The translations under genes were made by a program, and so were the position numbers. 64,000 nt of DNA, taken from assembly GCA_045605605.1 (NCBI GenBank), contig JAZUQH010000049.1, positions 12,799 through 76,798 on the forward strand. The letters are read 5' to 3'. Positions 8,797 to 50,570 of the stretch are shown in pieces (within the stretch, counting starts at the first letter, position 1; each line of letters starts with the position of its first letter). Source of the stretch: Acutalibacteraceae bacterium (GTDB lineage Bacteria > Bacillota > Clostridia > Oscillospirales > Acutalibacteraceae). The notes below the pieces were generated by a model. The model was not told where the DNA came from, made no database searches, and was given only the letters and a program-made list of their open reading frames with translations.

Positions 8797-10029
8797 ATGA
8801 AAATTGCAGTAGCAGGAACAGGCTATGTAGGACTATCTATTGCAGTGCTTCTCTCTCAGTTTAATGAAGTAATTGCCGTAGATGTTGTACCCGAAAAGGT
8901 AGAGCTCATAAACAACCGAAAATCTCCTATAAGGGATGAATACATAGAAAAGTATCTGGCAGAAAAGAAACTTAACTTATTTGCAACACTTGATGCTAAG
9001 CTTGCCTATAAGGATGCTGATTTCGTAGTTGTTGCAACACCTACTAATTATGACAGTCAGAAAAACTATTTCGATACAAGCGCCGTTGAATCGGTTATAA
9101 ATCAGGTAATTGACTTAAATCCCAAAGCAATTATTGTAATTAAATCCACAATACCCGTAGGCTATACCGAAAGTATACGTAAAAAGACCGGCAGCGATAA
9201 TATAATTTTTTGTCCTGAATTTTTGAGGGAAAGTCAGGCGTTATACGATAACCTTTACCCCTCAAGAATTATTTTAGGTACTGATATAAATGATATTCGC
9301 CTTAAATCCGCCGCTGAAACCTTTGCAAAACTACTTAATGAGGGAGCCATAAAGGATAACATTGAAACCTTATATATGGGCTTTACTGAGGCAGAGGCTG
9401 TAAAACTTTTTGCCAACACTTATTTAGCACTCAGGGTATCTTACTTTAATGAGCTTGATACCTATGCCGAAACAAAAGGACTTGATACAAAATCGATTAT
9501 TGACGGTGTTTGCGCAGATACACGCATAGGAAAGCACTATAATAATCCCTCCTTTGGATACGGAGGATACTGCTTACCTAAGGATACAAAACAGCTGCTT
9601 GCAAACTTTTCAGATGTGCCGCAGAATATGATAAGCGCAATAGTAGAATCCAATCGCACCCGCAAAGATTTTATAGCAGATACTGTTCTTAAAATGGCAC
9701 ATTACTACAGCGACAACAGTATGTATGACGCCGCTAAAGAGCGTCAGGTTACCATAGGCGTTTACAGACTTACAATGAAGTCAAATTCCGACAATTTCCG
9801 CCAAAGCTCCATTCAGGGAGTTATGAAGAGGATAAAATCAAAGGGCGCTACCGTTGTGGTTTATGAACCCACCCTTAAAGACGGTGAAACCTTCTTTGGA
9901 AGCCTTATAGTAAACGACCTTAATAAATTCAAAGAAATTTGCGACGCTATTATCGCAAACAGATATGATGAATGCCTTGATGATGTGAAGGAAAAAGTAT
10001 ATACAAGAGATATTTTCAGAAGAGATTAG
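8797..10029 (+). CDS. ugd: UDP-glucose 6-dehydrogenase
   Basis: It has an [14 protein letters not shown] Rossmann motif, the [10 protein letters not shown] catalytic-Cys motif, and a length of 410 aa. Confidence 0.9.
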
Positions 10030-13358: not shown

Positions 13359-13365
13359 AAACCAA

Positions 13366-13399
13366 AAACCACCGATTAAATTTAATTCGGTGGTTTTTT
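13366..13399 (+). terminator. intrinsic terminator after the LtaS-like gene
   Basis: The stem CCACCG (13369-13374) pairs with CGGTGG (13388-13393), with extended flanking pairs, and is followed by TTTTTT. Confidence 0.7.
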
Positions 13400-13445
13400 A
13401 ATGCGAAAATTTGCTCACAAAAAGCATAAAAATAAATCGTGTATA

Positions 13446-13474
13446 TTGACACGGAAAATATTATTAGCTATACT
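13446..13474 (+). promoter_or_regulatory. sigma-A-type promoter of the glycyl-radical enzyme operon
   Basis: TTGACA (13446-13451), a 17-nt spacer, then TATACT (13469-13474). A GGAGAGGG RBS and ATG 13503 lie downstream. Confidence 0.45.
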
Positions 13475-13502
13475 AAAGAAAAGCTTGGAGAGGGTGTGTA
13501 TT

Positions 13503-15632
13503 ATGGATTTCCGTTTTGATATGAGTATTCCAAACAAAAGTTATAACCAACCCGTTTGGACTGCCGACAATTCTGATTGGAAAAAAGTATGTAAAGCTAT
13601 TGCCCAAGATGAAAGCCGTCCTTGGATTGACAGAAAAAGTGAGATGATGGTTAATATTCTCAAAAACGCTCCTATTTCTGTTAATACAGATGATATTTTC
13701 CCATATTTAATAAAAACCGATAACTTTATGGGGGACCTAAGGACACAAAGACATCAGACAGCTATGGCCAAATTGCGCGCAGAATGGAAATTCGATTTTA
13801 ACCACACCGAATTCTCCATTTATCCTGATTTTTCCCACAGCTCTCCAGATTGGGATTTTATTGTAAAGAATGGCCTTGTGGGTATTAGACAAATTTTGAG
13901 CGAAAAAGAAAAAACGACGGAAAATGCAAAGTTTTATCAAAACGCTATTATGATTATTGATGCTGTTTTTGATTTAATCAATCGTTTCATTAAACTTTAT
14001 GAAAAAGACTGCGACAAACCTTCTGCCCGTTTTACCATAGATAACCTAAAAGCATTGTTACAGCACGAGCCACGAACACTTGCTCAGGCTTTCCAATTAT
14101 ATTTTATCATATATTGGGTTGTTGACCAGGTAGAATTTGTAGGCATCCGTTCTTTTGGCCGCATTGATAAGACCCTTCTTCATTTATATGAATCCGACTT
14201 AAAAAGCGGCGTTTACACTAAGCAGGATGAGGAAACCATTATCCGTTTTTTCTATGGACAAATTACGGCGATGAATCATCCCAATAATATTCCCATTTGC
14301 TTAGGCGGATGCGATTCAATAAATGGTGGAATTTCTCATTTCACTCGAGAACTGTTGCGAATTTACAATGATATGAATATCTATTCCCCAAAAATTCAAT
14401 TGCGTATATGTGAGGATACACCAAAGGATATCATCCGTGAGGTTTTAGACAATATACGCAAGGGTAACAACAGCTATGTTCTTGAAAATGACCCCATAGT
14501 TATTGAATCCTTAGTTAAAATAGGTATAGACCGCAAAGATGCTGTTAACTATATACCCATAGGCTGCTACGAACAAGCAGCACAAGGCACAGAGCTTCCT
14601 TGTACCAGCAACGGATTTTTTATAATGCCCCATGCGGTACAGCGAGCCATTGGCGTTAATGATATTGAAAAACGTTTCCAAGGCGAAGGTCAAATTAAAG
14701 AATATGAGGATTTTGATTCATTCTATACTGCAATCAAATCAGCGTTCAAGGAAACGGTTGATTGCGTATTAGACTTAATGAATAGCGCCCTTGACCCAAT
14801 TTGCAACATTGCCCTTACCTCTCCCTTATATTCTGTATTTTTCCCTCCATGTATAGAAAACGGTCGCGAGTTATACGAAGGCGGAGCAAAATACAACAAC
14901 AATTCCCTTTGTTTAGTTGGTTTTTCAACAGCCATAGATAGCATTATGGCAATTAAACAGTTAGTTTTTGATGAAAAGAAATTCACTCTTTCACAATTCA
15001 GGCAGATGATTAACTGCAATTGGGAAGGCTATGAGAAGGAAAGATTATATATACAAAACCGTTGCAAAAAATACGGCAACCAAGATGAGTTCACCGATCG
15101 TATAACCGCAGATTTCACCTCCTATTGTATGAAGCTTGTAAATAACAAGCCCAATCGCAGAGGCGGTGTATTTCGCGCAGGTCTGTGGTCAATTAACGGT
15201 AATCAAACCTTAGGAGCTCTAACCGGCGCTACTGCCGATGGAAGAAAAAAGGGAGAGCCTCTAAACAAAAACCTTAGTGCTACTATTGGAATGGATAAAA
15301 ACGGCGCAATCTCGCTTATGAAATCGGTTACCTCTATAGATGCTACCCTTGCACCGAACGGAGCCGTATTGGATTTGACGCTGCATCCTTCTGCTGTTCA
15401 CGGCGAAAAGGGACTTGACGCCTTTGTTGCATTAGTTGAAATGTTCTTCGCAGATGGCGGTCAGGCTATACAAATCAATGTGCTTGATTACGAAACCCTT
15501 AAAAAAGCGCAGCAAGAACCGGAAAAATATTCCACCCTGCAAATCAGAGTTTGCGGATGGAATTCCTACTTTGTAAATTTAAGTAAGCAAGATCAGGATA
15601 TATTCATAAAAACATCGGAAGGTTTGTGTTAA
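13503..15632 (+). CDS. glycyl radical enzyme (PFL-superfamily), substrate unknown
   Basis: The C-terminal LQIRVCGWNSYFVNL is the glycyl-radical fingerprint (Gly codon 15555-15557). The Cys loop reads NYIPIGCYEQ (Cys codon 14565-14567). The protein is 709 aa from ATG 13503. The track start 13401 lies upstream of the promoter-like and RBS signals. Confidence 0.9.
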   Translation: MDFRFDMSIPNKSYNQPVWTADNSDWKKVCKAIAQDESRPWIDRKSEMMVNILKNAPISVNTDDIFPYLIKTDNFMGDLRTQRHQTAMAKLRAEWKFDFNHTEFSIYPDFSHSSPDWDFIVKNGLVGIRQILSEKEKTTENAKFYQNAIMIIDAVFDLINRFIKLYEKDCDKPSARFTIDNLKALLQHEPRTLAQAFQLYFIIYWVVDQVEFVGIRSFGRIDKTLLHLYESDLKSGVYTKQDEETIIRFFYGQITAMNHPNNIPICLGGCDSINGGISHFTRELLRIYNDMNIYSPKIQLRICEDTPKDIIREVLDNIRKGNNSYVLENDPIVIESLVKIGIDRKDAVNYIPIGCYEQAAQGTELPCTSNGFFIMPHAVQRAIGVNDIEKRFQGEGQIKEYEDFDSFYTAIKSAFKETVDCVLDLMNSALDPICNIALTSPLYSVFFPPCIENGRELYEGGAKYNNNSLCLVGFSTAIDSIMAIKQLVFDEKKFTLSQFRQMINCNWEGYEKERLYIQNRCKKYGNQDEFTDRITADFTSYCMKLVNNKPNRRGGVFRAGLWSINGNQTLGALTGATADGRKKGEPLNKNLSATIGMDKNGAISLMKSVTSIDATLAPNGAVLDLTLHPSAVHGEKGLDAFVALVEMFFADGGQAIQINVLDYETLKKAQQEPEKYSTLQIRVCGWNSYFVNLSKQDQDIFIKTSEGLC

Positions 15633-15633
15633 T

Positions 15634-16545
15634 ATGCCTTTGGATAATAAACCAGAAGGTCTTGTATTTTCTATAAAGCATTTTGAAATACACGATGGCG
15701 ACGGTGTTCGCACTACGGTATTCTTAAAGGGTTGCCCTTTGGAGTGCTTGTGGTGTCATAATCCCGAGGGAATTTCTGCAAAACAAGAAATTGGTATCTT
15801 CCCCGAAAAATGTATCGGTTGTATGGACTGTGCCAATGAGTGCGACTGCCATATTTTTTCAAACAATAAGTGGAATTTTTTACGATCACAATGTAAAGGA
15901 TGTATGAAATGTGCCGAGCTTTGTGTCAGTGGCGCCATTGTAGCTTACGGTAAAAAATACACTGTGGATGAGCTGTTAAAAGAGGTTCTCAAAGACAAGG
16001 ATCTTTATGAAAAAACCGGCGGAGGAATTACCATTTCCGGCGGCGAACCTATGCTACAACACGATTTTGTTTTTGAATTACTTAAGAAATGCAAAAGCGA
16101 AGGGCTTAATACCGCCTTGGATACCTGCGGATATGCGAAATGGGAGCATTACCAAAAAATACTACCCTTCGTGGATACAGTGCTTTATGATATCAAGGCT
16201 TTTAACCCCGAGGTGCATAAACGCTTAACCGGAAAAGATAATGCACTTATATTGCAAAATTTAGAAAAAATATCCGCAAGCGGTGGTAAAATCGCAATAA
16301 GAATACCACTTATACCCACCCTCAATGATACGGAAATTAACGCTATTGGCAAATTTTTATCTTCCCTTGAAAATATAATTGAGGTGCGGTTGTTACCTTA
16401 TCACAATTATTCGTCCTCGGTTTATAATTCCTTAAATAAGCCTTATTCCATTGGCGAAATTCCGCCACCCAACAACGAACAAATAGAAATAGCCTTAAAA
16501 ACCCTAAAATCCTATAAATTAAATGTAGTTGACGGAAGAAAATAA
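15634..16545 (+). CDS. glycyl-radical enzyme activating protein (radical SAM)
   Basis: It has the CPLECLWCHN CxxxCxxC motif plus two ferredoxin-type clusters (CIGCMDCANEC and CKGCMKCAELC), and a GGEP SAM motif. It starts 2 nt after the glycyl radical enzyme stop. Confidence 0.9.
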   Translation: MPLDNKPEGLVFSIKHFEIHDGDGVRTTVFLKGCPLECLWCHNPEGISAKQEIGIFPEKCIGCMDCANECDCHIFSNNKWNFLRSQCKGCMKCAELCVSGAIVAYGKKYTVDELLKEVLKDKDLYEKTGGGITISGGEPMLQHDFVFELLKKCKSEGLNTALDTCGYAKWEHYQKILPFVDTVLYDIKAFNPEVHKRLTGKDNALILQNLEKISASGGKIAIRIPLIPTLNDTEINAIGKFLSSLENIIEVRLLPYHNYSSSVYNSLNKPYSIGEIPPPNNEQIEIALKTLKSYKLNVVDGRK

Positions 16546-16546
16546 T

Positions 16547-16586
16547 AAAAAAGCTACCCAAAGGAATCCCTTCGGGTAGTTTTTTG
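16547..16586. terminator. bidirectional intrinsic terminator between convergent genes
   Basis: GCTACCCAAAGG-AATC-CCTTCGGGTAG hairpin flanked by an A-run and a T-run. Confidence 0.7.
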
Positions 16587-16595
16587 ATTTAATAA

Positions 16596-18218
16596 TTAGA
16601 ATATTACCTCAATAACATCCTTGCCGGTGGGCTCTACTATATCAAAATCAACATAGTTGGAATCGCCAACCTTAGAGGTGGTAAAGGCATATTCCTTATC
16701 GTTAACAAGCACCTTAGAGCAGGTCTTATCTTTGGGAAGAAGAATATGGCACTTAACCTTCTTAGCGGGAGAATAAAGGTCATATCTCATACCCTCATCC
16801 TTTAAGATGAAGCGTAAGTCAACCATTGCCTGACTTACTTCATAGCCTGTAAAGTAACGAAGCTCATTATAATGTGTAACAGGGAAACGGGGGGTAAAGT
16901 AAATTTCATCATAATTTACGCCCACATCGTTAATACCTGCAAGAGCCTCATCTACTGCACTTAAGAATGCAGCCGCACCCCAAGCGCTTGGACCGCCATC
17001 GGGCTGAGGAGTTCCATCGGTATTATAAAGGAAGTATGCAACGTCATCACGTTCAACAAGCTTCATAAAGCGGGAGATAATATCCCAAGCATACTCTTCA
17101 TAACCGTTATTAAACGCAGCCTTTGCAAGTTCTCCTGCAGTAAAGGGAGAAACGGCGCCGTTTACATACTGACCGGGAAGCTTTCCGCCATAGTTTTCAT
17201 ATGGTGGGTCAATACTAAACCACTCAGCAAACTTATCGGTGGTCTCTTTTCTGCGCATATACTCTTCGATAATCTTTCTTGATTCTTCTAAGTTAGTAAC
17301 GCCGCGGTTAATATCATAGGGGTTGGAAAGAGAAATTCTCTGCCTTTCAAGGTCATCAAGGCCCTCGTGGTTAAGGTGAAGCTGATGCATAAAGAAATCG
17401 CCGTTCCAAAGATACTTAAACATATTTGCCTTAAGCTCCTCGGCTCTCTTTTCCCATTCCTTAGCCTTTGCTTCGTTTCCGAGTCTTCTGTTAAACCAAG
17501 CGAGCTGATTCATTGCCTGATAAACACCGGAATTATCGCCGTGCATGATAGACATAGGAGTATCTTCTTCGATTTTTCTGTTATAGCCTGCATCAGGACG
17601 GGGAGTAAAGTCCCACGTATCAATAGTGAAAGCACGCTTGCAAAGACCGTGCTCAGGGTCCCAACGCTTACTATCGCTTGTCATATAATCAATACTTTTT
17701 TCGAGCTTTGGAAGCACCTTTTTAAGCCACTCATCATCACCTGTTGTACGGTAAAGGTACATAGCGCCCTCAACAACAAGATATTCAATATCAGCCTCAA
17801 GCTCAAGGCGAACAAGAGTCTGATTATCTTCGGGGTACATAACACGGCAGTCTTCGTTTACAAATCTCCAGTGACCGTCATCATACTGCTTAATAAGCTC
17901 GTAGAACTGACCGTCTTCCCTCTGAGTATCAATAATGAAATTTAAGAAGGAATGAAGATTATAATCCCAGTGACGCATAGCCTTCATAATATGTACGTGG
18001 TCACGAATCCAGTTAATATTGCACATAAGAATTTTTCCGTCAATAAAAACTAATCTTCTTTCGTGGATAATGCTGTTGCGAAGTCTGTACATAAACATAC
18101 CAAGCTTTGAATCGGTAGCTGTAAGTATTGAGGGGAAGCCCACCTCAACGTTGTTGTAAGTACCGTTTATTTTGCCATCAACATGCATTCCGGGTAATCT
18201 GTTTTTAAATTCAATCAT
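16596..18218 (-). CDS. (alpha/alpha)6 six-hairpin glycosidase-like protein (family uncertain), cytoplasmic
   Basis: 540 aa with no signal peptide. Acidic/aromatic motifs (REDGQFYE, TIDTWDF, HGDNSGVY, GGPSAWGAAAF) are reminiscent of GH63/GH15/GH78-type barrels. The family assignment is from memory only. Confidence 0.4.
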   Translation of the reverse strand: MIEFKNRLPGMHVDGKINGTYNNVEVGFPSILTATDSKLGMFMYRLRNSIIHERRLVFIDGKILMCNINWIRDHVHIMKAMRHWDYNLHSFLNFIIDTQREDGQFYELIKQYDDGHWRFVNEDCRVMYPEDNQTLVRLELEADIEYLVVEGAMYLYRTTGDDEWLKKVLPKLEKSIDYMTSDSKRWDPEHGLCKRAFTIDTWDFTPRPDAGYNRKIEEDTPMSIMHGDNSGVYQAMNQLAWFNRRLGNEAKAKEWEKRAEELKANMFKYLWNGDFFMHQLHLNHEGLDDLERQRISLSNPYDINRGVTNLEESRKIIEEYMRRKETTDKFAEWFSIDPPYENYGGKLPGQYVNGAVSPFTAGELAKAAFNNGYEEYAWDIISRFMKLVERDDVAYFLYNTDGTPQPDGGPSAWGAAAFLSAVDEALAGINDVGVNYDEIYFTPRFPVTHYNELRYFTGYEVSQAMVDLRFILKDEGMRYDLYSPAKKVKCHILLPKDKTCSKVLVNDKEYAFTTSKVGDSNYVDFDIVEPTGKDVIEVIF

Positions 18219-18413
18219 AACACGCTCTCCTTTGCGTTTTATTCGAGTTCATTCTATCACAAACATTTCCTAATTGCAACGAATTTTAATAAAGATTTTT
18301 GGGGAAATTCGGAAATATATCAACCACATTAATTTTATCTTCCCCTATATTTCGTTTTAAGTGTCTGAGCCACCGCAAGTGCTTTTTAACTGATTTAAAC
18401 GGTCTCGAACCGA

Positions 18414-18447
18414 TTCTATTGAATTTTCAATAGAAATATGTTATAAT
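18414..18447 (+). promoter_or_regulatory. licD promoter with overlapping 22-bp palindromic operator-like site
   Basis: TTCTATTGAA-TT-TTCAATAGAA (18414-18435) is a perfect 10-bp inverted repeat. The -35 TTGAAT (18419-18424) is followed by a 17-nt spacer and the -10 TATAAT (18442-18447). Confidence 0.45.
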
Positions 18448-18470
18448 GATAAAAACTTTAGGAGTGTATT

Positions 18471-19292
18471 ATGGATAATTTTGAAATTTTAAATGAGCTT
18501 AAAAAAGCCGAAATCGATATACTCAAAGCTTTTATAAAGGCTTGCAACGAACTTGATTTAAAGTATTATTTAGCATATGGTACCCTTATAGGTGCCATTC
18601 GTCACAAGGGATTTATCCCCTGGGATGACGATATTGACATCGTAATGCCAAGAAAAGACTATGAGGAATTTTTAAAATCAGGCCAAGAGTTATTGCCCGA
18701 TAATTTGTTTATACAGCACATTGGCAGTGAGCCTAATTTCCTCATGACCTTTGCTAAAATCAGAAACAGCAATACAACCTTTATGCAAAAATCCGATCGT
18801 AAATTTAGGATAAATCACGGTGTGTTTATAGATATTATTCCCCTTGATTATTTTCCAGAGGACGAAAAAACTTTTCAAAAAATATTATCTAAGAAGAAAA
18901 AATACGACTTTAGAATTAACAGCGCTCTTAATTACGGAACAAAAAAGAATATTAAAACCAAAATTAAAATCGCTTTATATAAGATAAAATATCCGTCATT
19001 AAAGGTTATTGTAAGAAAAACTGTTAATTTATATAAATCTATACCCGAAAGCAAAAAATTCACTGTTTATTGTTTTTCCCGTCCTGAGCTCAACACCGCA
19101 CCTATAGAATGGTTTGGTAAGGGAATAGAAACGGATTTTGAAGATGTTAAAGCTATAATTCCAAAAGAATATCACAAATGGAATACTCAACTTTACGGCG
19201 ATTATATGCAGTTCCCGCCCGCTGAAGAACAAACCCCACATCATTATACCGAAATAGTGGATTTGACGAAATCTTATAAAGAGTATATATAA
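18471..19292 (+). CDS. licD: LicD-family phosphotransferase (phosphocholine / phospho-alcohol transfer to glycopolymer)
   Basis: LKYYLAYGTLIGAIRHKGFIPWDDDIDIVMPRKDY is the LicD signature, including the DxD motif. Confidence 0.85.
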   Translation: MDNFEILNELKKAEIDILKAFIKACNELDLKYYLAYGTLIGAIRHKGFIPWDDDIDIVMPRKDYEEFLKSGQELLPDNLFIQHIGSEPNFLMTFAKIRNSNTTFMQKSDRKFRINHGVFIDIIPLDYFPEDEKTFQKILSKKKKYDFRINSALNYGTKKNIKTKIKIALYKIKYPSLKVIVRKTVNLYKSIPESKKFTVYCFSRPELNTAPIEWFGKGIETDFEDVKAIIPKEYHKWNTQLYGDYMQFPPAEEQTPHHYTEIVDLTKSYKEYI

Positions 19293-21080: not shown

Positions 21081-22847
21081 TTAATCATCTGATAATGAAT
21101 AAAATTCTTTTTGATAACGCTTAAATACGCTAAGATATTTGAGCATTAAATCAGAATAATCATTGCCGTGCTTAACCATATAAAGTGCCCATATATACCA
21201 ATAATAAAATGACACGGCTGCACAGCCTACTATGTGTCTACGCTCTGTAAAGGTAGGCTTACGCTCAAAGTAAAAGGATAACCATTTATCTATATCCTTA
21301 CCTACTGCATCGTTTTTGACAAATAACTTGCAAAGATCGTATCCTATATCCGTATCGCCGGCATATTCCCAATCTATTAAGTAGAGCTTATCGCCTGAAA
21401 TAAGTAAATTATCTTCATATAAATCATTATGCACCATCTGAACAGGCCAACCGTCAGCCTTTATGATATTATCGATTTCTTTAATGCTGTCTAACTGTTC
21501 AATTCCAATTTGATAAGCCTCTTCATCGATAACCTTTATACCTTTGAGAAGTTTATTGGCTTCCTTCATATAGTCCATCGGCTTACCGCAAGTCAGAGAA
21601 ACCTGATATAAGCTTCTCAGCGCTTGACAGAGCATTTTCACATGATTAGAATTAGAAAAATCGAAAGCATCAGTCACATCGATAAAATGTGATATTTTCC
21701 AGCCCTCTTCTTCATCAGCATAGATGTAAGAATCATCAATTCCTCGCTCTTTAGCGTTGCTTAAGGCCTTTTTTTCACATTTTCTATCCAACCATTCGGA
21801 TGAAATGCTTCCTGGGTTTCTATAAACGTAACTCTGTCCGTTACAAATAAATTTAAACGAACTGTTAGTATATCCTTTTTGTATTGGGCGAATCTCGTGT
21901 ATATCATCAGGATTACAGTTAAGAGTAGTGCATATGTTTTTCGTTAATGAAATACTGTTATACTTGATATAGTCAGGGTCAAAAGCTTCCAACTCTGCCA
22001 CCGAATCAAATTCCATAACCTGTTCAGATGTATAGCGTTTTTCATACAACGGTAATTCATCGACGTGTTCTGCATATACCTGTTCCCAATAAAGTCCTTC
22101 CGAACCGGGAGTATCATACATATCTTCTAATATTACCCTGAATTTATCGCTGAATTCGCGGTTAAAATATGCATAACCGTTCATTACCCACTGGTCAACT
22201 GCTGGACGCTGAGTGGCTGTTATGAGGCCGTTTTTATCTGTAAACACGCCTCTTTCCCCTCGCAATACGCCTTCCATATACAAAGTGGAGTATAGAGAAT
22301 GTGGCTCGTACTTATGAAATACTGATTTTGGGAAATAGTTATCAGCGCAGCATATATAACTTTTTTTTAAATACTCTCTGGAGAAATACAAGCTTGAATG
22401 AGTATTCTTATATCTATATTCTTCATTAAGCACAATTTTCACATTAAATTTATCTACCAGATAAAGAAATTTCTCCATCATGTGACCTAACACAATAATA
22501 ATTTCTTCTACTCCGGCTTCTCTCAATTGACGTATTTGACGTTCTATCAGCACTTCACCCTTTACAACCGTTAAGCCCTTCGGCTTTTCATACGAAAAAG
22601 GAACAAATCGAGTGCTCATACCTGCCGCAAGAATAATAGCGTTTTGAACCCTGTAGCCTTCCATTTTTTCAAGACCTTTTTGAGTAACACTATAATCATC
22701 GGTAATATATAATGATTCCTGTAGTTTTGCTATAGTTTTATTAACAGTGCCTAAAGAAAGCTCTATAGATTCAGCAATCGTTCGTTGGGTTTTTCCGCCT
22801 TTGTTTTCGCAAATATAACGTAAAACTTCGAACTCATTTTTATTCAT
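21081..22847 (-). CDS. wHTH - LicC (CTP:phosphocholine cytidylyltransferase) - LicA (choline kinase) fusion protein
   Basis: 588 aa with three regions. The N-terminus has an HTH (QRTIAESIELSLGTVNKTIAKL). The middle has an NTP-transferase motif (AIILAAGMSTRF). The C-terminus has choline/ethanolamine kinase motifs (HNDLYEDNLLI and LIDWEYAG). An AAGGAGG RBS is present. Confidence 0.8.
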   Translation of the reverse strand: MNKNEFEVLRYICENKGGKTQRTIAESIELSLGTVNKTIAKLQESLYITDDYSVTQKGLEKMEGYRVQNAIILAAGMSTRFVPFSYEKPKGLTVVKGEVLIERQIRQLREAGVEEIIIVLGHMMEKFLYLVDKFNVKIVLNEEYRYKNTHSSLYFSREYLKKSYICCADNYFPKSVFHKYEPHSLYSTLYMEGVLRGERGVFTDKNGLITATQRPAVDQWVMNGYAYFNREFSDKFRVILEDMYDTPGSEGLYWEQVYAEHVDELPLYEKRYTSEQVMEFDSVAELEAFDPDYIKYNSISLTKNICTTLNCNPDDIHEIRPIQKGYTNSSFKFICNGQSYVYRNPGSISSEWLDRKCEKKALSNAKERGIDDSYIYADEEEGWKISHFIDVTDAFDFSNSNHVKMLCQALRSLYQVSLTCGKPMDYMKEANKLLKGIKVIDEEAYQIGIEQLDSIKEIDNIIKADGWPVQMVHNDLYEDNLLISGDKLYLIDWEYAGDTDIGYDLCKLFVKNDAVGKDIDKWLSFYFERKPTFTERRHIVGCAAVSFYYWYIWALYMVKHGNDYSDLMLKYLSVFKRYQKEFYSLSDD

Positions 22848-27891: not shown

Positions 27892-27930
27892 AAAGATAAG
27901 CTCCGAGAGCAAACCTCGGAGCTTATCTTT
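27892..27930. terminator. bidirectional terminator
   Basis: AAAGATAAGCTCCGAG pairs with CTCGGAGCTTATCTTT in a 16-bp hairpin. Confidence 0.7.
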
Positions 27931-28774
27931 ATTTCTTATAATTGATTTGAAATTTTTTTGGTGTTATGCCCGTTTTAGCTTTAAAAATTCGAATAAAATA
28001 ACTAACGTCTGTAAAGCCCAGACGATTTGCAACATTGCCCACTGAGCCTTCGCCGTTTTTAAGCATTTTTCTGGCTTTTTCTATACGAATATCAAGTATA
28101 TATTCGCTTACTCCCTTGCCAAAATTCTGCTTCCAAAGATTATAAAGGGCACTGCGGCTTATGTTAAACTCTTTACATATAGAAGATACCGACAACTCTT
28201 CACCGATATTTTTTTTAATATAACAATCTATCCTATATGCCAAATCTTCATTTTTAACGCTTATAAAATCCTTCATCCAAATATAATTTGAGCACATTTC
28301 AAGTAGGGTAGAAATTGAATTTATATAATCCTTCGACCTATATTTTATATTGCCGATTTTTTCATAAAGCGCCTCATTTTCAAAACCGTATTCCTCGCAA
28401 ATTCGGTCAGCAGCTTTATAGATCTCTCCCTTATCCTTATTATCCGTTATCTGTCCAAAAAGCATATACCCTAAAATAATATTATTGTAAATAATAGGGG
28501 TAGCAACCTCGGTAAGACCCATATGGCATTTATATACATAGGTTTCTCCTCTTTTTTTGCACTCCTCAAATGCCCTTTTATCGCATTCTATGCATTTTTC
28601 ATTTATATCTTTATTCTTTCTGATAAAAGAGCAAAATGCCCCTGCCTTTGATGATTTGGAATAAGAGCAAACAGAGTTTTTACCCTCGTCGTATATGTTT
28701 ATGGGTACCCTTGCTATATCAAAAAAGTATTTCGCCAAGTTTTTGAGCTGATTGATATCTCGGTCAAAAATCAT
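27929..28774 (-). CDS. AraC-family transcriptional regulator with PocR-like sensory domain
   Basis: The N-terminal Cys-rich region resembles PocR (CSFIRKN..CIECDKRAFEECKK..YKCHMGLTEV). The C-terminus carries an AraC HTH (SVSSICKEFNISRSALYNLWK). Confidence 0.8.
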   Translation of the reverse strand: MIFDRDINQLKNLAKYFFDIARVPINIYDEGKNSVCSYSKSSKAGAFCSFIRKNKDINEKCIECDKRAFEECKKRGETYVYKCHMGLTEVATPIIYNNIILGYMLFGQITDNKDKGEIYKAADRICEEYGFENEALYEKIGNIKYRSKDYINSISTLLEMCSNYIWMKDFISVKNEDLAYRIDCYIKKNIGEELSVSSICKEFNISRSALYNLWKQNFGKGVSEYILDIRIEKARKMLKNGEGSVGNVANRLGFTDVSYFIRIFKAKTGITPKKFQINYKK

Positions 28775-28910
28775 AATGCCACCACCTTTTATAAATTATA
28801 AAGCATTTTTGATTAAATTACAATAATCAAAAGTCCTATTTTTAAGAACTAAAATGGGTTTTTTTATTTTTGAAAAAATGTTATCCTTTTTAAAAAAAGG
28901 AGGAAATTTT

Positions 28911-30101
28911 ATGTCACTTGCAAAAAAACTTTTAGACGAAGGAAAGGGAATATTACGCCTTAAACCTACTTGGGTACCAAGAAGCTTTTGCCGTCCCGGT
29001 AAAAGAATTAAGCTTCACCCAGATGATTATTATATTTTAGGTCTTGAGCGAGGCGGTATAGATGAACGCTGGTTTGCATCTACTACATGGGCAGAAAACG
29101 GCCCCGATACCCCCGAGGACGAGGGACTTTCCTACATAGTTTCAAAGGATGGAAGCGAAAGAATTTTACTTCGCGATGCGATTGATGAATTAAAGGGAGA
29201 AATCATCGGAGAGAATTTATGGAATAAATATCATAAATGGCCTATGTTCTCAAAGTTTTTTGATAATGCAGGTCCCTTGCCCCATCATATACATCATAGA
29301 GATGAGCACGCAAAGAGGGTAGGCGCTGACGGTAAACCCGAAATGTATTTCTTCCCATCACAGTGTAATAATCACGGCGGAGAGTTCCCCTTCACCTTCT
29401 TCGGACTTAACCCCGAAACCACAAAGGAAGAAATGAAAAAGTGCTTAGAGGATTTTCATAAGGGCGATAACAAGCTTTTAGATTTGTCCCGCGCTTATAA
29501 AATAACCCTCGATACAGGTTGGGATGTGCCTCCCGGAGTATTACACGCCCCCGCAAGTCTTTGCACCTATGAACCTCAGTTCGCAAGTGACGTATACGCT
29601 ATGTATCAATCGGTATTATACGGCGGCCACTGTGTACCCGAGGATTTATTATGGAAAAACTGCCCCGAGGAAGAAAAGGGCAACTTTGATTATCTTATGG
29701 ATGTTATTGACTGGGAGGCAAATACCGACCCCGAATTCAGCAAAAAACGCTTTATGGCGCCTAAAACTATCTGGGAAAACGAAAAGGGCAAAGAAGAATG
29801 GATTTGCTATAAATGTCCCGTTGTATCAGCTAAACGCCTTACCGTTAATCCCGGTCAGACTGTGGTTGTCAAGGATATGGCGGCATACGGCCTTATTAAC
29901 CTTCAGGGTACAGGCACTATAAACCAGTGGCCTTTGGAAACACCCACCCTTATCCGTTACGGTGAGCTTACAAACGATGAATATTTCGTGACCGAGGATG
30001 CGGCAAAGCAGGGCGTTACTATAACTAATACCTCGGCTACCGAGCCCATTGTTATGCTCAAGCACTTTGCTGAAAACCCCGAGCTTGTATTAGAGGATTA
30101 A
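28911..30101 (+). CDS. cupin-fold metal-dependent sugar isomerase-like protein (PMI-like; uncertain)
   Basis: The His cluster PLPHHIHHRDEH and the PPGVLHAP segment resemble the two cupin metal motifs. The start at ATG 28911 lies behind AGGAGG. No signal peptide is present. Confidence 0.4.
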   Translation: MSLAKKLLDEGKGILRLKPTWVPRSFCRPGKRIKLHPDDYYILGLERGGIDERWFASTTWAENGPDTPEDEGLSYIVSKDGSERILLRDAIDELKGEIIGENLWNKYHKWPMFSKFFDNAGPLPHHIHHRDEHAKRVGADGKPEMYFFPSQCNNHGGEFPFTFFGLNPETTKEEMKKCLEDFHKGDNKLLDLSRAYKITLDTGWDVPPGVLHAPASLCTYEPQFASDVYAMYQSVLYGGHCVPEDLLWKNCPEEEKGNFDYLMDVIDWEANTDPEFSKKRFMAPKTIWENEKGKEEWICYKCPVVSAKRLTVNPGQTVVVKDMAAYGLINLQGTGTINQWPLETPTLIRYGELTNDEYFVTEDAAKQGVTITNTSATEPIVMLKHFAENPELVLED

Positions 30102-30102
30102 A

Positions 30103-31128
30103 ATGGTTGTTTTATTTAATAAGAAGTTATCAAAAGCCGAAATATTAAGGCGTGTCGGAGATATTTCTCAAATAGCGGGCGCTATCCCCTTTGAGTATAC
30201 AAGCGGCAAAGCAAAGGGAACATCGGCTATAGAAGTTCGTAACGGCGAATTAAGATTTGTTATCCTCACCGATAGAGGTATGGATATATCCTATGCAGAA
30301 TATAAAGGCACACCCGTGTCTTATATTTCGAAGACAGGTATAGTATCGCCTGCCCATTATGATGAAACGGATTTTTTACGCAGCTTCTCTGCGGGACTTC
30401 TTACCACCTGCGGCCTTACCTATAATGGCGCTCCTTGCATTGATGAGGGTGTTTCTTTAGGTGCCCACGGTAGAATTTCAAATATTCCTGCCTTTGATGT
30501 GGGTATTACTCAGGAATGGCAGGGCGATGACTTTGTTATCTCGGTTAAAGGTAAGGTGCGGGAATCCACCGTTTTTGGCGAAAATATGGTTCTGACACGA
30601 ACGATAACAACCAAATTAGGCGATAACACAATTCAGATAAACGATTCCATAGAAAACGAGAGCTTTGCGCCAACACCACTGATGATGCTTTATCATATGA
30701 ATTTCGGTTACCCGCTTGTTTCGGAAAATACCGTTCTTGAAACTAATTGTAAAAACATCCGTCCGCGCGATGAGATTGCCGCTACTGGAATTGATGATGC
30801 TTGTAGGTTCAGCAATCCTATTCACGGTTACAGTGAGCAGGTGTTTTATAGAGATTCTGTTTCTCAAAGCTACGCAACACTTAAAAATCCAGATTTAAAT
30901 ATAAGCGCTACTGTAAGCTTTTCGGGAGACCAGCTACCGTATCTTATTGAGTGGAAGCAAGTGGGCGAACAAGAATATGTTGTAGGATTAGAACCCGCTA
31001 CATATCCACCCGATGGAAGAGCGAAGGCAAGAGAGAGAAATGAACTTTTATATCTTGCTCCAAACAAATGTAAAGTTCATAACATAACCTTGTCTTTTCA
31101 AAACGGTGAGTCTGCTTTAAAAACATAA
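30103..31128 (+). CDS. aldose-1-epimerase-fold protein (DUF4432-like)
   Basis: 341 aa. The N-terminal RVGDISQIAG...LTDRGMDI pattern matches my memory of DUF4432, a mutarotase-like family. Confidence 0.6.
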   Translation: MVVLFNKKLSKAEILRRVGDISQIAGAIPFEYTSGKAKGTSAIEVRNGELRFVILTDRGMDISYAEYKGTPVSYISKTGIVSPAHYDETDFLRSFSAGLLTTCGLTYNGAPCIDEGVSLGAHGRISNIPAFDVGITQEWQGDDFVISVKGKVRESTVFGENMVLTRTITTKLGDNTIQINDSIENESFAPTPLMMLYHMNFGYPLVSENTVLETNCKNIRPRDEIAATGIDDACRFSNPIHGYSEQVFYRDSVSQSYATLKNPDLNISATVSFSGDQLPYLIEWKQVGEQEYVVGLEPATYPPDGRAKARERNELLYLAPNKCKVHNITLSFQNGESALKT

Positions 31129-31154
31129 ATATGCTAAATTAAGGAGAATCATTC

Positions 31155-33212
31155 ATGAAATGGTATGAGGATAAATTCCGCCGTCATCTTTGCGATATGC
31201 ATATTGATGATTGGAACGAGGAATTTTTAAGCGAATTTTCGGCAGAAAATTACTTTAAAATGCTCAAAAAAGCAAATGTGCAGATGGCAATGATCTATCT
31301 GCAGTCCCACTTAGGACTTTGTAATTGGGAAAGCAAAACAGCAAAGGTGCACCGTTTTTTTGCGAAGCGGCCCAATGAAATCAAAAGGCTTATAGATATG
31401 TGCCGCGCAGACGGTATAAGGGTTATGGGTTATTATAGTCTTAACTTTAATCGCGCGGCATACGACGAACACCCTGAGTGGAGTATGCGAAGAGAGGACG
31501 GTCTTGCTGACCCTGAGCGTTGGTCGGGCGACCGCAAAGGTCTTTGCTGTCCCAATAATTATGAGTACCGCGAATTTGTTTACCGACAGATTGATGAGAT
31601 GTTGGAAGAATATGAGCTTGACGGACTTTTCTTTGATATGCTTTATTGGCCACAGGTCTGCTACTGTGATTCCTGTAAAGCAAGATATAAAAAAGAAACA
31701 GGAAAGGAGGCGCTTCCGATTCAGAAAAGCGCGACTCAAAAGGAATGGATAGAATTTGCGGATATCAGAGCCTATTGGATGGGCGAATGGGCTCAGTCTG
31801 TTACCGATTACGTGCACTCCAAAAACAAAGACCTTGCGGTTGAGCATAATTTTTCCTCTGCCGCATCTCAAAGTCCTTGGGGTTGTTGCAGAGATGGCGT
31901 AAGCGAAGCCAGTGACTTTACAGGCGGAGACCTTTACGGCGGAGCCTTGGAGCAATCCTTTGTTTGCAAAATGTACCAAGCTTTGTCTAAAAATCAACCT
32001 TTTGAATATATGACAGGCAGATGCACCCCAAATCTCTTAACTCATACCGTAACCAAAACCGAGGATAGTTTAATGCGCCACGTTATGCTTACCTGCGCTC
32101 ATCACGGCGCATCTTTGATGATAGATGCCATAGACCCCGTAGGCACCCTTGACGAAAGGGTTTATGACTTAATTGGTAAATGCTTTGGGCAAGAGGCTGA
32201 TTATGAACAGTATTTAAAAGGCGATATGATTGCCGATATTGGAATTTTTTATAATCTTGATTCTAAATTCAATATGCAAAATACGGGCGGCTCTGCCGAG
32301 CAGTTTTTACATTTTAACGTAAATCAGTTGCATCTTACAAACCACACCGCCTCTCTTGGCGCTATGAAAACTCTTGTGGGTGAACACATCCCCAACGCCA
32401 TTACCACAAAGGGTAGAAAGGGCGATTGGGAAAAATACAAGGTGCTTGTGGCTCCCAACATAAACCGCTTAGAAGAGGAAACCGTTGATGCTTTAATAGC
32501 ATACGTTAATGATGGCGGAAATCTTTATTTTAATAACTGCGATGAGCCACGCCTTTTTGAAACCCTCATAGGCGGCAAATATATAGGTCACACCAATGTA
32601 AAGCCCTATATGTTCCCAAAAGAAAACTGCGAGGATTATATACCCAGTTACAATATCAAATACCCACTGCCATTAAGCTTTTCCGCGCCTATGGTTGAGG
32701 GAGTAGAGGATGAATATATTAAGGGTTACTTAAAGTTCCCCTACACGACGAGAATGGAGCGCCGTTGCGCCTCATTCCATTCCGACCCACCCGGTATTGA
32801 TACGAAATATCCTGCTATTATTGATAAGCCCTTCGGAAAAGGCAGAGTTATTTGGTGCGCCGGTTCCCCCGAATTATATGAGGCAAAAGCATACCGAGAT
32901 ATGTTTATAGCTTTGATTTCAAAACTTCATAACGATAAATTCACCGTTTCTTCAACTGCGCCAAGCAGCGTAGAATTAGTTTCCTTCAAAGAGAACAATA
33001 AAATCCGCATAAGCGCTGTAAACCTTATGGATGGCGATACCTTCTTTGCCTACCCCGATTTTTCTGTAACCGTTAAAACAGATAAAAATGTATCATCGGT
33101 TAAATTATTGCCCGATAAAAAAGAAATTCCATTTGAAGTCGAAAAAGACAGGGTGACCTTTAATGTATCAGGTCTTAAAATTATGGAAATGTTTGAAATA
33201 GAAACGGAATAA
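31155..33212 (+). CDS. putative glycoside-hydrolase-like protein (GHL6-type TIM barrel plus GATase-like trimerisation domain; uncertain)
   Basis: 685 aa. The N-terminal FRRHLCDMHIDDW and the later VLVAPNINRLEEETVDALIAYVNDGGNLYF resemble a GHL6 / beta-galactosidase middle-domain architecture. No signal peptide is present. Confidence 0.4.
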   Translation: MKWYEDKFRRHLCDMHIDDWNEEFLSEFSAENYFKMLKKANVQMAMIYLQSHLGLCNWESKTAKVHRFFAKRPNEIKRLIDMCRADGIRVMGYYSLNFNRAAYDEHPEWSMRREDGLADPERWSGDRKGLCCPNNYEYREFVYRQIDEMLEEYELDGLFFDMLYWPQVCYCDSCKARYKKETGKEALPIQKSATQKEWIEFADIRAYWMGEWAQSVTDYVHSKNKDLAVEHNFSSAASQSPWGCCRDGVSEASDFTGGDLYGGALEQSFVCKMYQALSKNQPFEYMTGRCTPNLLTHTVTKTEDSLMRHVMLTCAHHGASLMIDAIDPVGTLDERVYDLIGKCFGQEADYEQYLKGDMIADIGIFYNLDSKFNMQNTGGSAEQFLHFNVNQLHLTNHTASLGAMKTLVGEHIPNAITTKGRKGDWEKYKVLVAPNINRLEEETVDALIAYVNDGGNLYFNNCDEPRLFETLIGGKYIGHTNVKPYMFPKENCEDYIPSYNIKYPLPLSFSAPMVEGVEDEYIKGYLKFPYTTRMERRCASFHSDPPGIDTKYPAIIDKPFGKGRVIWCAGSPELYEAKAYRDMFIALISKLHNDKFTVSSTAPSSVELVSFKENNKIRISAVNLMDGDTFFAYPDFSVTVKTDKNVSSVKLLPDKKEIPFEVEKDRVTFNVSGLKIMEMFEIETE

Positions 33213-47852: not shown

Positions 47853-48692
47853 TTATTCATCCTTAGAAATGCGTTTACCTTTTCGAAACTCAGAAGGGGA
47901 AACGCCGTTTAATCGACGGAATACATCTCCGAAATAGTTGCTGCTTGAAAAGCCGCAGCGCCCTGCAATCTCAATTATAGATAGATTGGTATCCTTCAAC
48001 ATCCGCCGCGCTGCGCTAATTCGGGTTTGGGTTAAAAACTCCTGAAAGCCAAAGCCTGTAAGCTGTTTAAATCTTTTTGAAAAATAAGTGCGCTCCATAT
48101 ACACCGCTTTTGCAGCGCTATCAAGGGTTATATGAGTATCGTAATTTTCCTGAATGAATTTGCTGATATCCTGAATTTTGTCGGCGCTTTCAACAAAGCT
48201 TGTGCTCTTTTCGTTGCCGTAACGAAGTGCGCATAGCAAAATATCCTGAACAAGATGATTGAGATACACATGAGAGTATGGTGAAACAGCGCGACATTCG
48301 TTGCACAATATCTCCAAATCATTTTCAATTTGACGGGCTGCATTTTGCGGCAGCTTCAGGCATCCGCAATTCATAAGCCTATTAAATTCTTTCTTTCCCA
48401 ACAACTCAATAAACCCGCGCAAGCTTTTTTCATATACGAATAAAACATATCGGTCATAACCGGACATATTTAACGATGTAGTCTTGTGAGTTTCAAAGTG
48501 AGGTATAAAAACGAGATTCTTTGGGGAAACATCGTAAATTTTATGACCGATAAAATACCTCCTTTTACCTGATACAAGGAAATATAATTCGTGATAATCG
48601 TGGGTGTGTGAGGGGTAGGTGTAATTTTTATTTTGCGTTGCGGTTTTATCCGCAAATATGCCGAATTCTTTCATGCATTTATCCATTTCCAT
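47853..48692 (-). CDS. AraC-family transcriptional regulator (cupin sensor + HTH)
   Basis: The C-terminus has SIIEIAGRCGFSSSNYFGDVFRRLNGVSPSEFR. The start is placed at ATG 48692, behind GAAGGTGA. Confidence 0.8.
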   Translation of the reverse strand: MEMDKCMKEFGIFADKTATQNKNYTYPSHTHDYHELYFLVSGKRRYFIGHKIYDVSPKNLVFIPHFETHKTTSLNMSGYDRYVLFVYEKSLRGFIELLGKKEFNRLMNCGCLKLPQNAARQIENDLEILCNECRAVSPYSHVYLNHLVQDILLCALRYGNEKSTSFVESADKIQDISKFIQENYDTHITLDSAAKAVYMERTYFSKRFKQLTGFGFQEFLTQTRISAARRMLKDTNLSIIEIAGRCGFSSSNYFGDVFRRLNGVSPSEFRKGKRISKDE

Positions 48693-48839
48693 ATAAATCA
48701 CCTTCTTGCTTAGTATATCACAAGTGATTTTAAAATGCAATATTTCTGTAGTTTAAGCGGGACAATACCCAAAATATCGGTTGAAAGTACATTATAATTG
48801 CACTATAATTATATTATAAAGTTATTTGAGGTGATTGCT

Positions 48840-50546: not shown

Positions 50547-50570
50547 AATATACCTAATGGAGTGAATTTT

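Follow-up and report, generated by a model that had tools for sequence, protein, structure and literature searches.

Introduction

Among characterised glycyl radical enzymes (GREs), the best profile and fold matches to the enzyme described here are the B12-independent glycerol dehydratase (GD) of C. butyricum (1R8W/1R9D) and the 1,2-propanediol dehydratase (PD) of R. inulinivorans (5I2A/5I2G). Both carry a Cys-X-Glu (CXE) motif, in which the glutamate acts as general base (PMC13450708). C–O cleavage with this motif is also carried out by PflD/YbiW (8ID0, 8YJO, 8ID7; PMC13450708). These isomerases of 'anhydroglycolysis' convert 1,5-anhydromannitol- and 1,5-anhydroglucitol-6-phosphate to 1-deoxyfructose-6-phosphate, and are the only characterised GREs acting on sugars. 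A 2026 review of the superfamily covers every characterised GRE, and whole clades are still unannotated (PMC13450708), a recognised gap. Here we describe the gene of an oxygen-sensitive GRE, and that of its activase, in a 64,000-nucleotide stretch of DNA, hereafter the window, from an Acutalibacteraceae bacterium (contig JAZUQH010000049.1, positions 12,799 to 76,798). No enzyme in that review corresponds to the window GRE (PMC13450708).

On balance we think it likely that the two genes form an accessory cassette whose enzyme catalyses a Cys/Glu/His-assisted radical C–O cleavage, of eliminase or isomerase type, on a glycan-derived substrate. What is new is the clade to which the enzyme belongs, a compact group within the CXE GREs, linked to AraC-type regulators and carbohydrate-active enzymes (CAZymes) and uncharacterised so far. 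We define this clade as compact, large, phylogenetically broad and marked by the signature H112/R216/CYE/RVCGW; its link to glycan degradation, gene fusions included, provides a concrete, testable lead. Should the clade act on sugars, anaerobic carbohydrate radical chemistry would extend past the two known sugar-phosphate isomerases. The window copy is also practical, being small and self-contained with a strong predicted promoter, and natural strains with and without the cassette exist for comparison.

A compact glycyl radical enzyme and its activase

The open reading frame (ORF) listing and direct reading confirmed what a first-pass annotation, made from the letters alone, had reported: a GRE of 709 aa is encoded at 13503-15632 (+), with its ATG at 13503. 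The radical glycine is Gly685 (codon 15555-15557) in IRVCGWNSYF, the glycyl radical motif R682-V-C-G685-W-N occupying 15546-15563. The Cys loop, PIGCYEQ, holds Cys355-Tyr356-Glu357 (14565-14573), in which Cys355 (codon 14565-14567) is the predicted thiyl radical site and Glu357 (codon 14571-14573) the predicted general base. The loop thus reads G-C-Y-E without the Cys-Cys of pyruvate formate-lyase (PFL), and the PFL model TIGR01255 scored only 81 bits against a cut-off of 994, so the earlier assignment to the Cys-x-Glu eliminase/isomerase type, not to PFL, stands. A ribosome-binding site, GGAGAGGG, lies 8 nt ahead of the ATG (13487-13494, +), and AGGAGG occupies the equivalent place in the orthologous cassettes of a four-cassette comparison. 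We rejected a longer reading frame starting at 13401, which would cross a terminator and the promoter; the orthologues P0002-4 begin at the equivalent of 13503.

Further residues were placed by HMMER alignments together with the active-site residues of GD, HypD, CutC and IslA. His112 (codon 13836-13838, +) is equivalent in alignments to both enzymes to GD His164 and PD His166, which we take to be the proton donor to the leaving group. Arg216 (codon 14148-14150, +) is specific to the clade; it lies on the barrel strand that carries GD Ser282 and HypD Asp278 and aligns with GD Ile283, the neighbour of Ser282, a position from which it may be directed into the pocket.

The protein matched the Pfam families PFL-like (E=1.7e-76) and Gly_radical (E=1.3e-22). 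An AlphaFold2 (AF2) model built from 41 input sequences reached a mean pLDDT of 91 and a pTM of 0.92, and is predicted to adopt the ten-stranded beta/alpha barrel of the GRE superfamily. Foldseek aligned this model to more than 40 GRE chains with probability 1.00 and TM scores of 0.84-0.88; solved CXE-type GREs, among them PD, GD, PflD, CutC and HypD, fell in the same TM range at 19-23% identity.

The activase gene opens 1 nt past the GRE stop codon (15634-16545, +) and encodes a GRE-activating radical S-adenosylmethionine (SAM) enzyme of 303 aa. As previously reported, its translation contains a CX3CX2C cluster and two extra ones, the cysteines reading C34-x3-C38-x2-C41, C60-x2-C63-x2-C66-x3-C70 and C87-x2-C90-x2-C93-x3-C97. 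The latter two lie in a ferredoxin-like insert with paired CX2CX2CX3C motifs for auxiliary [4Fe-4S] clusters, as found in activases of the CXE class. It scored 332 bits against the GRE activase model TIGR02494 (cut-off 174) and matched the Pfam families Radical_SAM, Fer4_12, Fer4_6 and Fer4_16. We regard it as nearly certain that the window pair is a functional GRE with its activase.

An insulated transcription unit under purifying selection

The cassette appears to be transcribed on its own, as had been proposed. A sigma-70-type promoter, TTGACA-17-TATACT, lies at 13446-13474 (+); it matches the consensus at 11 of 12 positions, better than any other site in the region. Across the four orthologous cassettes neither hexamer varies, despite only ~70% identity between the proteins. 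Upstream, an intrinsic terminator at 13366-13399 (+; -16.2 kcal/mol, z = -5.7 for hairpin stability against shuffled sequence, U6 run) ends the preceding LtaS-like gene and insulates the cassette. Downstream, a bidirectional terminator at 16547-16586 is common to a convergent glycoside hydrolase (GH) gene, with -20.5 (+) and -20.3 (-) kcal/mol, z ~ -6 and U runs on both strands.

All four orthologous cassettes (window 13420-13445; L008, L010, L093) also carry an A/T-rich box, AAAAG[CT]ATAAA, ~20 nt upstream of the -35 hexamer. Possible roles of this box are those of an UP element or of an operator for AraC, retained by the window copy without its AraC gene.

Could the pair be a decaying, non-functional remnant? 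The window copy does lack the AraC gene of its closest orthologues, and sister strains have no cassette at all. Against this, both ORFs are intact with all catalytic motifs present, and the promoter and ribosome-binding site are near-consensus and conserved. Copies of the GRE that are 99.7% identical are carried by two other samples, and the orthologue clusters P0002-4, at 68-72% identity, are full length and keep every motif. In the window subclade the ratio of nonsynonymous to synonymous substitution (dN/dS) was 0.06-0.10 by the Nei-Gojobori method, on orthologues 68-72% identical and with synonymous sites saturated; this value rules out a decaying gene, and we give the remnant hardly any chance. 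Because of the confident model, the full-length orthologues, the low dN/dS and the conserved promoter and ribosome-binding site, the GRE gene is, judged from sequence, intact and under purifying selection, with a conserved predicted promoter of its own.

Relation to characterised glycyl radical enzymes

No NCBIfam equivalog came near its cut-off for the window GRE. In bits against the model cut-off, scores were 274 against 1000 for HpfG, 272 against 1100 for HypD (NF043068), 254 against 1109 for the formate C-acetyltransferase model NF007437, 234 against 1050 for CutC (TIGR04394) and 180 against 1150 for HPAD; the broad PFL2/glycerol-dehydratase subfamily model TIGR01774 gave 310 against 678. 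High identity to a characterised GRE, which the first-pass annotation had named as a ground for dropping its proposal, was therefore not found, with equivalogs far under cut-off and identities of 19-23%. PFL, decarboxylase and X-succinate synthase assignments were ruled out on motif and score. The best solved matches of the clade profile were GD (2e-163), PD (3e-158), CutC, PflD and HypD, all of them CXE enzymes cleaving C–O or C–N bonds (PMC13450708). A new GRE reaction, as had been suggested, is plausible but unproven.

The window GRE resembles GD and PD in its fold (TM 0.85-0.88), its Cys-x-Glu loop, its His112 at the position of His164/His166 and an activase with two auxiliary clusters, and the aromatic residue at GD Tyr640 is kept as Trp562. 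Unlike them, it is ~80-130 aa shorter, with ~46 aa gone from its N-terminus and further deletions in loops, and only 22-23% identical. CYE and RVCGW replace CVE and RVAGY, Arg216 is peculiar to the clade, and no microcompartment or aldehyde-processing genes were found among the annotated ORFs of the window locus. The diol-binding residues of GD, which we take to be Ser282, Tyr339, Asp447 and His164, align with Ile215 (beside Arg216), Asn262, Ser369 and His112 respectively, so that only His164 is kept.

These comparisons bear on the proposal that the enzyme is a miniaturised, isofunctional glycerol/1,2-propanediol dehydratase, which would make an aldehyde, with no microcompartment around it, from a diol such as the 1,2-propanediol that arises when fucose or rhamnose is fermented. 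Such a role would fit the profile and fold matches and the conserved histidine and CXE motif. Families of fucosidases and rhamnosidases (GH95, GH78, GH106, FucU) are met repeatedly in the vicinity of clade members, and there are AraC regulators of PocR type both in the window (27929-28774) and next to the homologue P0007. Yet the GD substrate-binding positions Ser282, Tyr339 and Asp447 are not conserved, with Asn262 and Ser369 variable in the clade, and the TIGR01774 score is less than half its cut-off. Aldehyde dehydrogenase, alcohol dehydrogenase and shell genes were missing both from the annotated part of the window and from the conserved partners of the clade, and the presence of several paralogues per genome with variable pocket-adjacent residues points to many substrates, not one diol. 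We therefore rejected identity with B12-independent GD or PD on the lost diol-binding residues and the TIGR01774 score, and consider an isofunctional diol dehydratase improbable.

PflD/YbiW likewise share the CXE motif and the fold (TM 0.85-0.86), and PflD is relatively small too (764-781 aa in the solved chains). They differ in identity (21-22%) and in the low NF007437 score, and the window locus has none of their phosphotransferase system, kinase or aldolase partners. HypD (6VXC) and CutC (5FAU) have the same CXE loop and activase type and superpose at TM 0.86-0.88. The window GRE lacks an equivalent of HypD Asp278, has His112 at the position of CutC Asp216, which binds the trimethylammonium group, and has no co-transcribed proline- or choline-utilisation genes. 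A HypD assignment was rejected on NF043068. A link to CutC and phosphocholine through nearby Lic genes was rejected on the Asp216 to His112 replacement and the TIGR04394 score; those Lic genes are biosynthetic and present also where the cassette is absent. We take the positions of IslA Arg189 and Gln193 to be Pro108 and His112 in the window GRE; at position 108 the clade has Pro, Ile, Ser, Leu or Val and no Arg in a 114-sequence alignment.

Another CXE-type reaction on a non-carbohydrate, such as C–N or C–S lysis, decarboxylation or dehydration of an amino-acid derivative, has to be considered here. The protein is equidistant from the CXE enzymes HypD, CutC, HplG, IslA and HpsG (TM 0.84-0.88, 19-23% identity), and the best equivalog-like match of the activase was the activase of hydroxyproline dehydratase (HypD), at 334 bits below a cut-off of 425. 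NagA-like amidohydrolases adjoin two clade members, a hint of amino-sugar C–N chemistry, and the conserved arginine could bind a carboxylate. On the other side, the HypD, CutC, HpfG and HPAD models all score far under cut-off, the CutC Asp216 position is a histidine and no arginine stands at the place of IslA Arg189; sulfite reductase and amino-acid pathway genes are absent nearby. We judge a non-carbohydrate substrate unlikely.

A large clade of compact enzymes

At 709 aa against 764-843 aa in characterised eliminases and isomerases, the window GRE is indeed as compact as had been remarked; compactness is, however, a trait of the whole clade and not of this gene alone. Nor is the gene the isolated oddity that it had seemed. 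A pattern scan of GTDB, with one genome per GTDB species, identified at least 592 loci with the Gly motif [NTQ]L[QI]VR[VLI][CW]GW[NS] that encode relatives. An exhaustive phmmer search of 1.84 billion representatives at 50% identity recovered 1587 GREs at E<=1e-30; of the 150 best representatives among these, roughly 130 fit the compact clade (mostly 680-760 aa and 28-41% identical, plus fragments and fusions). A word-indexed search had given few relatives; the more sensitive searches gave many. Members examined further (P0005-P0017, L011-L090, P0192-P0340) were 29-43% identical to the window GRE over their full length. The hosts comprise uncultured Clostridia (Oscillospiraceae, Eubacteriales, Monoglobus-like), Victivallales/Lentisphaerae, Verrucomicrobiota, Planctomycetes and Armatimonadia, glycan-degrading lineages of gut and sediment.

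Conservation was counted in an alignment of 114 clade sequences. Gly685, Trp686 and Cys355 are each present in all 114 (Cys355 is invariant in 136 aligned sequences), and Glu357 in 112; the conservation of Gly, Cys and Glu among relatives, proposed earlier as a check on gene decay, thus spoke for the enzyme. Cys684 is found in 108 sequences, where other GREs have an RVAGY/F motif, and Tyr356 in 105, where they have Val. His112 and Arg216 are each kept in 107, the latter replacing Ile, Leu or Val of other GREs. Positions equivalent to GD Tyr339 and Asp447 vary, as does the stretch 565-567, and the GD Tyr640 position stays aromatic. The catalytic core seems to be fixed across the clade, and the positions around it free to vary. 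The window GRE has the features of a member: a length within 680-760 aa, His112, Arg216, C-Y/W-E and R-V/L-C-G-W-N.

A neighbour-joining tree, the phylogenetic check that had been called for, placed the window GRE in this uncharacterised clade, its subclade forming a long branch nested inside. The subclade, which includes P0002-4, is rare: it comprises one representative at 50% identity and four clusters at 90%, and P0004 is the only phmmer representative more than 50% identical to the window GRE. Two scans of JGI metagenome contigs returned no close-subclade relatives, and the contigs that carry P0002-4 are only 3-4.5 kb long.

In many genomes two GREs of the compact clade or related to it lie in tandem or a few kb apart (L001 10001-19647; L013 9665-14045; L048, L057, L058, L065, L073). 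Each often has its own AraC gene, and one activase is sometimes shared. This arrangement suggests paralogue expansion for different substrates.

Genomic context and fusion proteins of the clade

ORFs were called and clustered in 85 clade loci. Of the 80 GRE genes whose contig extends to a preceding gene, 43 had a divergent AraC-type gene as that direct neighbour; at a distance of up to three genes, an AraC-type gene accompanied 55 of 90. The activase was immediately downstream in 37 of 83 cases. AraC regulator and activase were the only recurrent neighbour families; microcompartment shell and aldehyde dehydrogenase genes were not among the recurrent neighbours in the 85 loci. The remaining neighbours vary greatly but lean strongly towards carbohydrates. 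The normal unit of the clade is AraC-GRE-activase beside CAZyme and transporter genes. The earlier statement that a regulator and a pathway context are missing accordingly holds for the window copy but not for the clade.

Among 20 hand-picked, annotated adjacent genes on the same strand, ~11 were linked to carbohydrates. This set covers GH3, GH106, GH78-like, GH95, GH2 and RHGA/GH28-like proteins, SASA and SGNH esterases, BNR, CBM32 and MFS/EamA transporters. Precomputed annotations around four homologues listed GH2, GH32/43, GH28, GHL6, MFS_2, GH5/42, GH95, GH38, FucU and GH20 with NagA and NagB. A literature search found no paper that links GREs with AraC and GH neighbourhoods.

Fusion proteins point the same way. 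All five long fusions among the clade representatives (940-1530 aa) join the compact GRE to a carbohydrate-active domain that precedes it: a GH78-like domain in P0282, a GH2-mannosidase-like domain in P0302, a 3-keto-disaccharide-hydrolase domain in P0309, a SASA esterase domain in P0312 and an AXE1/CE7 domain in P0331.

Proposed reaction and substrate

The mechanism that we propose is built on established GRE chemistry (PMC13450708) and on the conserved Gly685, Cys355, Glu357 and His112. The CX3CX2C cluster of the activase, with SAM, would abstract hydrogen from Gly685, and the resulting glycyl radical would generate a thiyl radical on Cys355. Cys355 would then take a hydrogen atom from a hydroxyl-bearing carbon of the substrate and Glu357 would deprotonate the hydroxyl, giving a ketyl radical. 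Protonation of a vicinal oxygen leaving group (OH or OR) by His112 would break the C–O bond, and the product radical would regain hydrogen from Cys355. The outcome would be loss of water, some other 1,2-elimination, or an isomerisation that opens a ring or an ether, in parallel with the B12-independent glycerol/propanediol dehydratases and PflD/YbiW. Reaction type, substrate class and the function of Arg216 are all deduced in this way from sequence and must be read as predictions.

Because of the clade context, a glycan-derived sugar, sugar derivative or polyol is the likeliest class of substrate. Most likely the substrate is a small carbohydrate-derived molecule that glycoside hydrolases or esterases set free: a monosaccharide, a sugar acid, a polyol, or a deoxy-, anhydro- or otherwise modified sugar. 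It may be anionic, to judge from the conserved Arg216 and a frequent Arg or Lys at position 558. Of the glycan- or head-group-derived molecule considered previously, the glycan half is favoured by the clade neighbours and fusions, but the head-group half is not, given the CutC Asp to His replacement and the TIGR04394 score of 234 against 1050.

A stronger version, possible but doubtful, is that the compact RVCGW clade consists of radical carbohydrate-active enzymes that attack sugars or glycosides directly. A hydrogen would be abstracted at a ring carbinol, and beta-elimination of a glycosidic, methyl-ether or ring C–O bond would follow; alternatively, a monosaccharide would be dehydrated to a deoxy-keto sugar. 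Direct action, if true, would account for the GH78, GH2, esterase and 3-keto-disaccharide-hydrolase fusions and for the many AraC-controlled paralogues per genome. It would provide a route independent of O2 and NAD, complementing glycoside hydrolases, lyases and the 3-keto-glycoside pathway.

Several points weigh against radical C–O cleavage on a glycan-derived substrate. The CXE motif is present also in the decarboxylase HPAD. It is further found in enzymes that cleave C–N and C–S bonds (PMC13450708), and does not guarantee C–O cleavage. No single metabolic neighbour is conserved across the clade: 97 neighbours fell into 154 Pfam families, the commonest of which occurred 4 times. The 20 neighbours cited above were not chosen blind, and some adjacent clade genes (citrate synthase, beta-lactamase, nucleoside hydrolase) are unrelated to sugars. 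The fusions come from gene calls on metagenomes, some of which may have joined ORFs wrongly; the N-terminus of P0309 resembles a signal peptide, which is odd for a GRE and hard to square with cytoplasmic activation. The loss of three of the four GD diol-binding residues counts here as well. The window copy has no adjacent co-oriented CAZyme or transporter and no co-transcribed CAZyme, and its local context is uninformative, the same neighbours being found in strains without the cassette. Finally, its GRE is no more than 32-43% identical to the CAZyme-linked members and its branch in the tree is long, so that its function may have diverged. The locus alone reveals no substrate, and an unassigned GRE will not in itself surprise specialists.

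A strain-variable cassette in a surface-polymer locus

Comparison of strain contigs delimited a strain-variable accessory cassette of 3.2 kb at 13362-16594 (+), consisting of terminator, promoter, GRE, activase and terminator. Contigs L094-L097 match the window at 96-98% identity on either side of the site; in them the LtaS-like gene directly adjoins the GH gene, with ~172 unrelated bp between the two. At the cassette site of L091, which is less closely related (GH 94% identical), stand 532 unrelated bp. So far the cassette has been seen in the window, L098 and L099. Since near-identical strains keep both flanking genes without it, the GRE-activase pair is a strain-variable accessory cassette and its neighbours are bystanders. 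The first-pass annotation had read the LtaS-like and GH genes as clues to function, a view that these strains overturn. No base-composition signature of horizontal transfer was seen (GC 35-42% throughout), and no target-site duplication was evident at the junctions. No AraC gene lies within 11 kb of the window cassette, the nearest being at 27929-28774 and 47853-48740; in the closest orthologues, L008 and L010, an AraC gene directly follows the activase. The window copy thus looks like an unusually stripped-down, mobile representative of the clade. Microcompartment shell, aldehyde dehydrogenase and alcohol dehydrogenase genes were absent from the annotated window ORFs of at least 150 aa (~39 of 53; the fourteen others lie at 38-41 kb, three, and beyond ~52 kb, eleven).

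In L091 (reverse complement), the 532-bp filler at ~9460-9640 holds, on the opposite strand, a degenerate C-terminal remnant of an AraC-type helix-turn-helix (HTH) protein (…FKLATGFSPTEYKK*) with stops upstream. It matched the AraC protein of L008 by tblastn at E=0.003, and may be what is left of a regulator gene since lost.

The genes upstream on the same strand form a surface-glycopolymer cluster, which encodes a TupA-like ATP-grasp protein, an acyltransferase, GT2, a GHMP kinase and a nucleotidyltransferase, then an epimerase, Ugd, NTP_transf_5 and the LtaS-like sulfatase-fold protein. Downstream are the convergent MGH1-like six-hairpin GH, LicD, an SSF transporter and an HTH-LicC-LicA fusion. 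The Ugd gene (8797-10029) and a stretch at 18320-19239 with most of LicD (gene at 18471-19292) are missing from L094. Because these, like the GRE cassette, are missing there, the surface-polymer locus is a gene-cassette mosaic. Ugd accompanies the cassette in L098 and is lacking, like the cassette, in L094-L096, a pattern seen in five contigs only, the window included.

This setting allows a further explanation, that the cassette belongs to the polymer locus and the GRE makes or modifies a polymer sugar or head group. The cassette shares its strand with a hypervariable polysaccharide or teichoic-acid-like cluster (GT2, GHMP kinase, nucleotidyltransferase, epimerase, Ugd, LtaS-like, LicD), whose 3' edge it occupies, and it co-varies with Ugd, both being in the window and L098 and neither in L094-L096. 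That co-variation, however, comes from five contigs only, perhaps representing two lineages, and the cassette has its own promoter and terminators on both sides. The orthologous cassettes and the wider clade are AraC-controlled and stand amid catabolic GH and transporter genes, and GREs are not known in glycan biosynthesis (PMC13450708). We hold a biosynthetic role to be very unlikely, and retain action on a glycan-derived substrate as our preferred reading.

The convergent GH gene (16596-18218, -) was rejected as a dedicated partner of the GRE: it has 2440 homologues and occupies the same place in strains without the GRE. More than 120 homologue clusters share 71-77% identity with it, and it has no NCBIfam name. 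One homologue (70% identity) lies beside an AraC-GRE pair in L070, an occurrence that is not statistically meaningful, and no relation to the GH78-like domains of P0282 or L040 was detectable. We noticed no signal peptide in this protein, which is extraordinarily conserved and common in Clostridia metagenome-assembled genomes; it looks like a housekeeping-type cytoplasmic glycosidase.

Other observations in the window

The HTH-LicC-LicA fusion at 21081-22847 (-) is a protein of 588 aa in which a winged-helix/MarR-like HTH at the N-terminus is combined with a nucleotidyltransferase of LicC type and a choline kinase of LicA type. It adjoins the SSF transporter and LicD.

The region 47853-51731 holds a second AraC regulator gene, whose product has an AraC_binding domain; pointing away from it are a GH2 gene and an ORF of 389 aa without Pfam match. 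This is probably another sugar-inducible unit.

At 27929-33212 we found a module of a PocR-AraC regulator, a 415-aa protein (28854-30101), a DUF4432 protein and a GHL6/fucosidase-like GH. The 415-aa protein carries an HHIHH motif and has neither a Pfam match nor a sequence relative in the PDB. The module may be linked functionally to the GRE clade, or its placement may be coincidence. In L004 (13733-17957) the same module, minus DUF4432, lies directly beside the activase-GRE-MFS_2 operon of the homologue P0007, the 415-aa proteins of the two modules being 76% and the GHs 41% identical.

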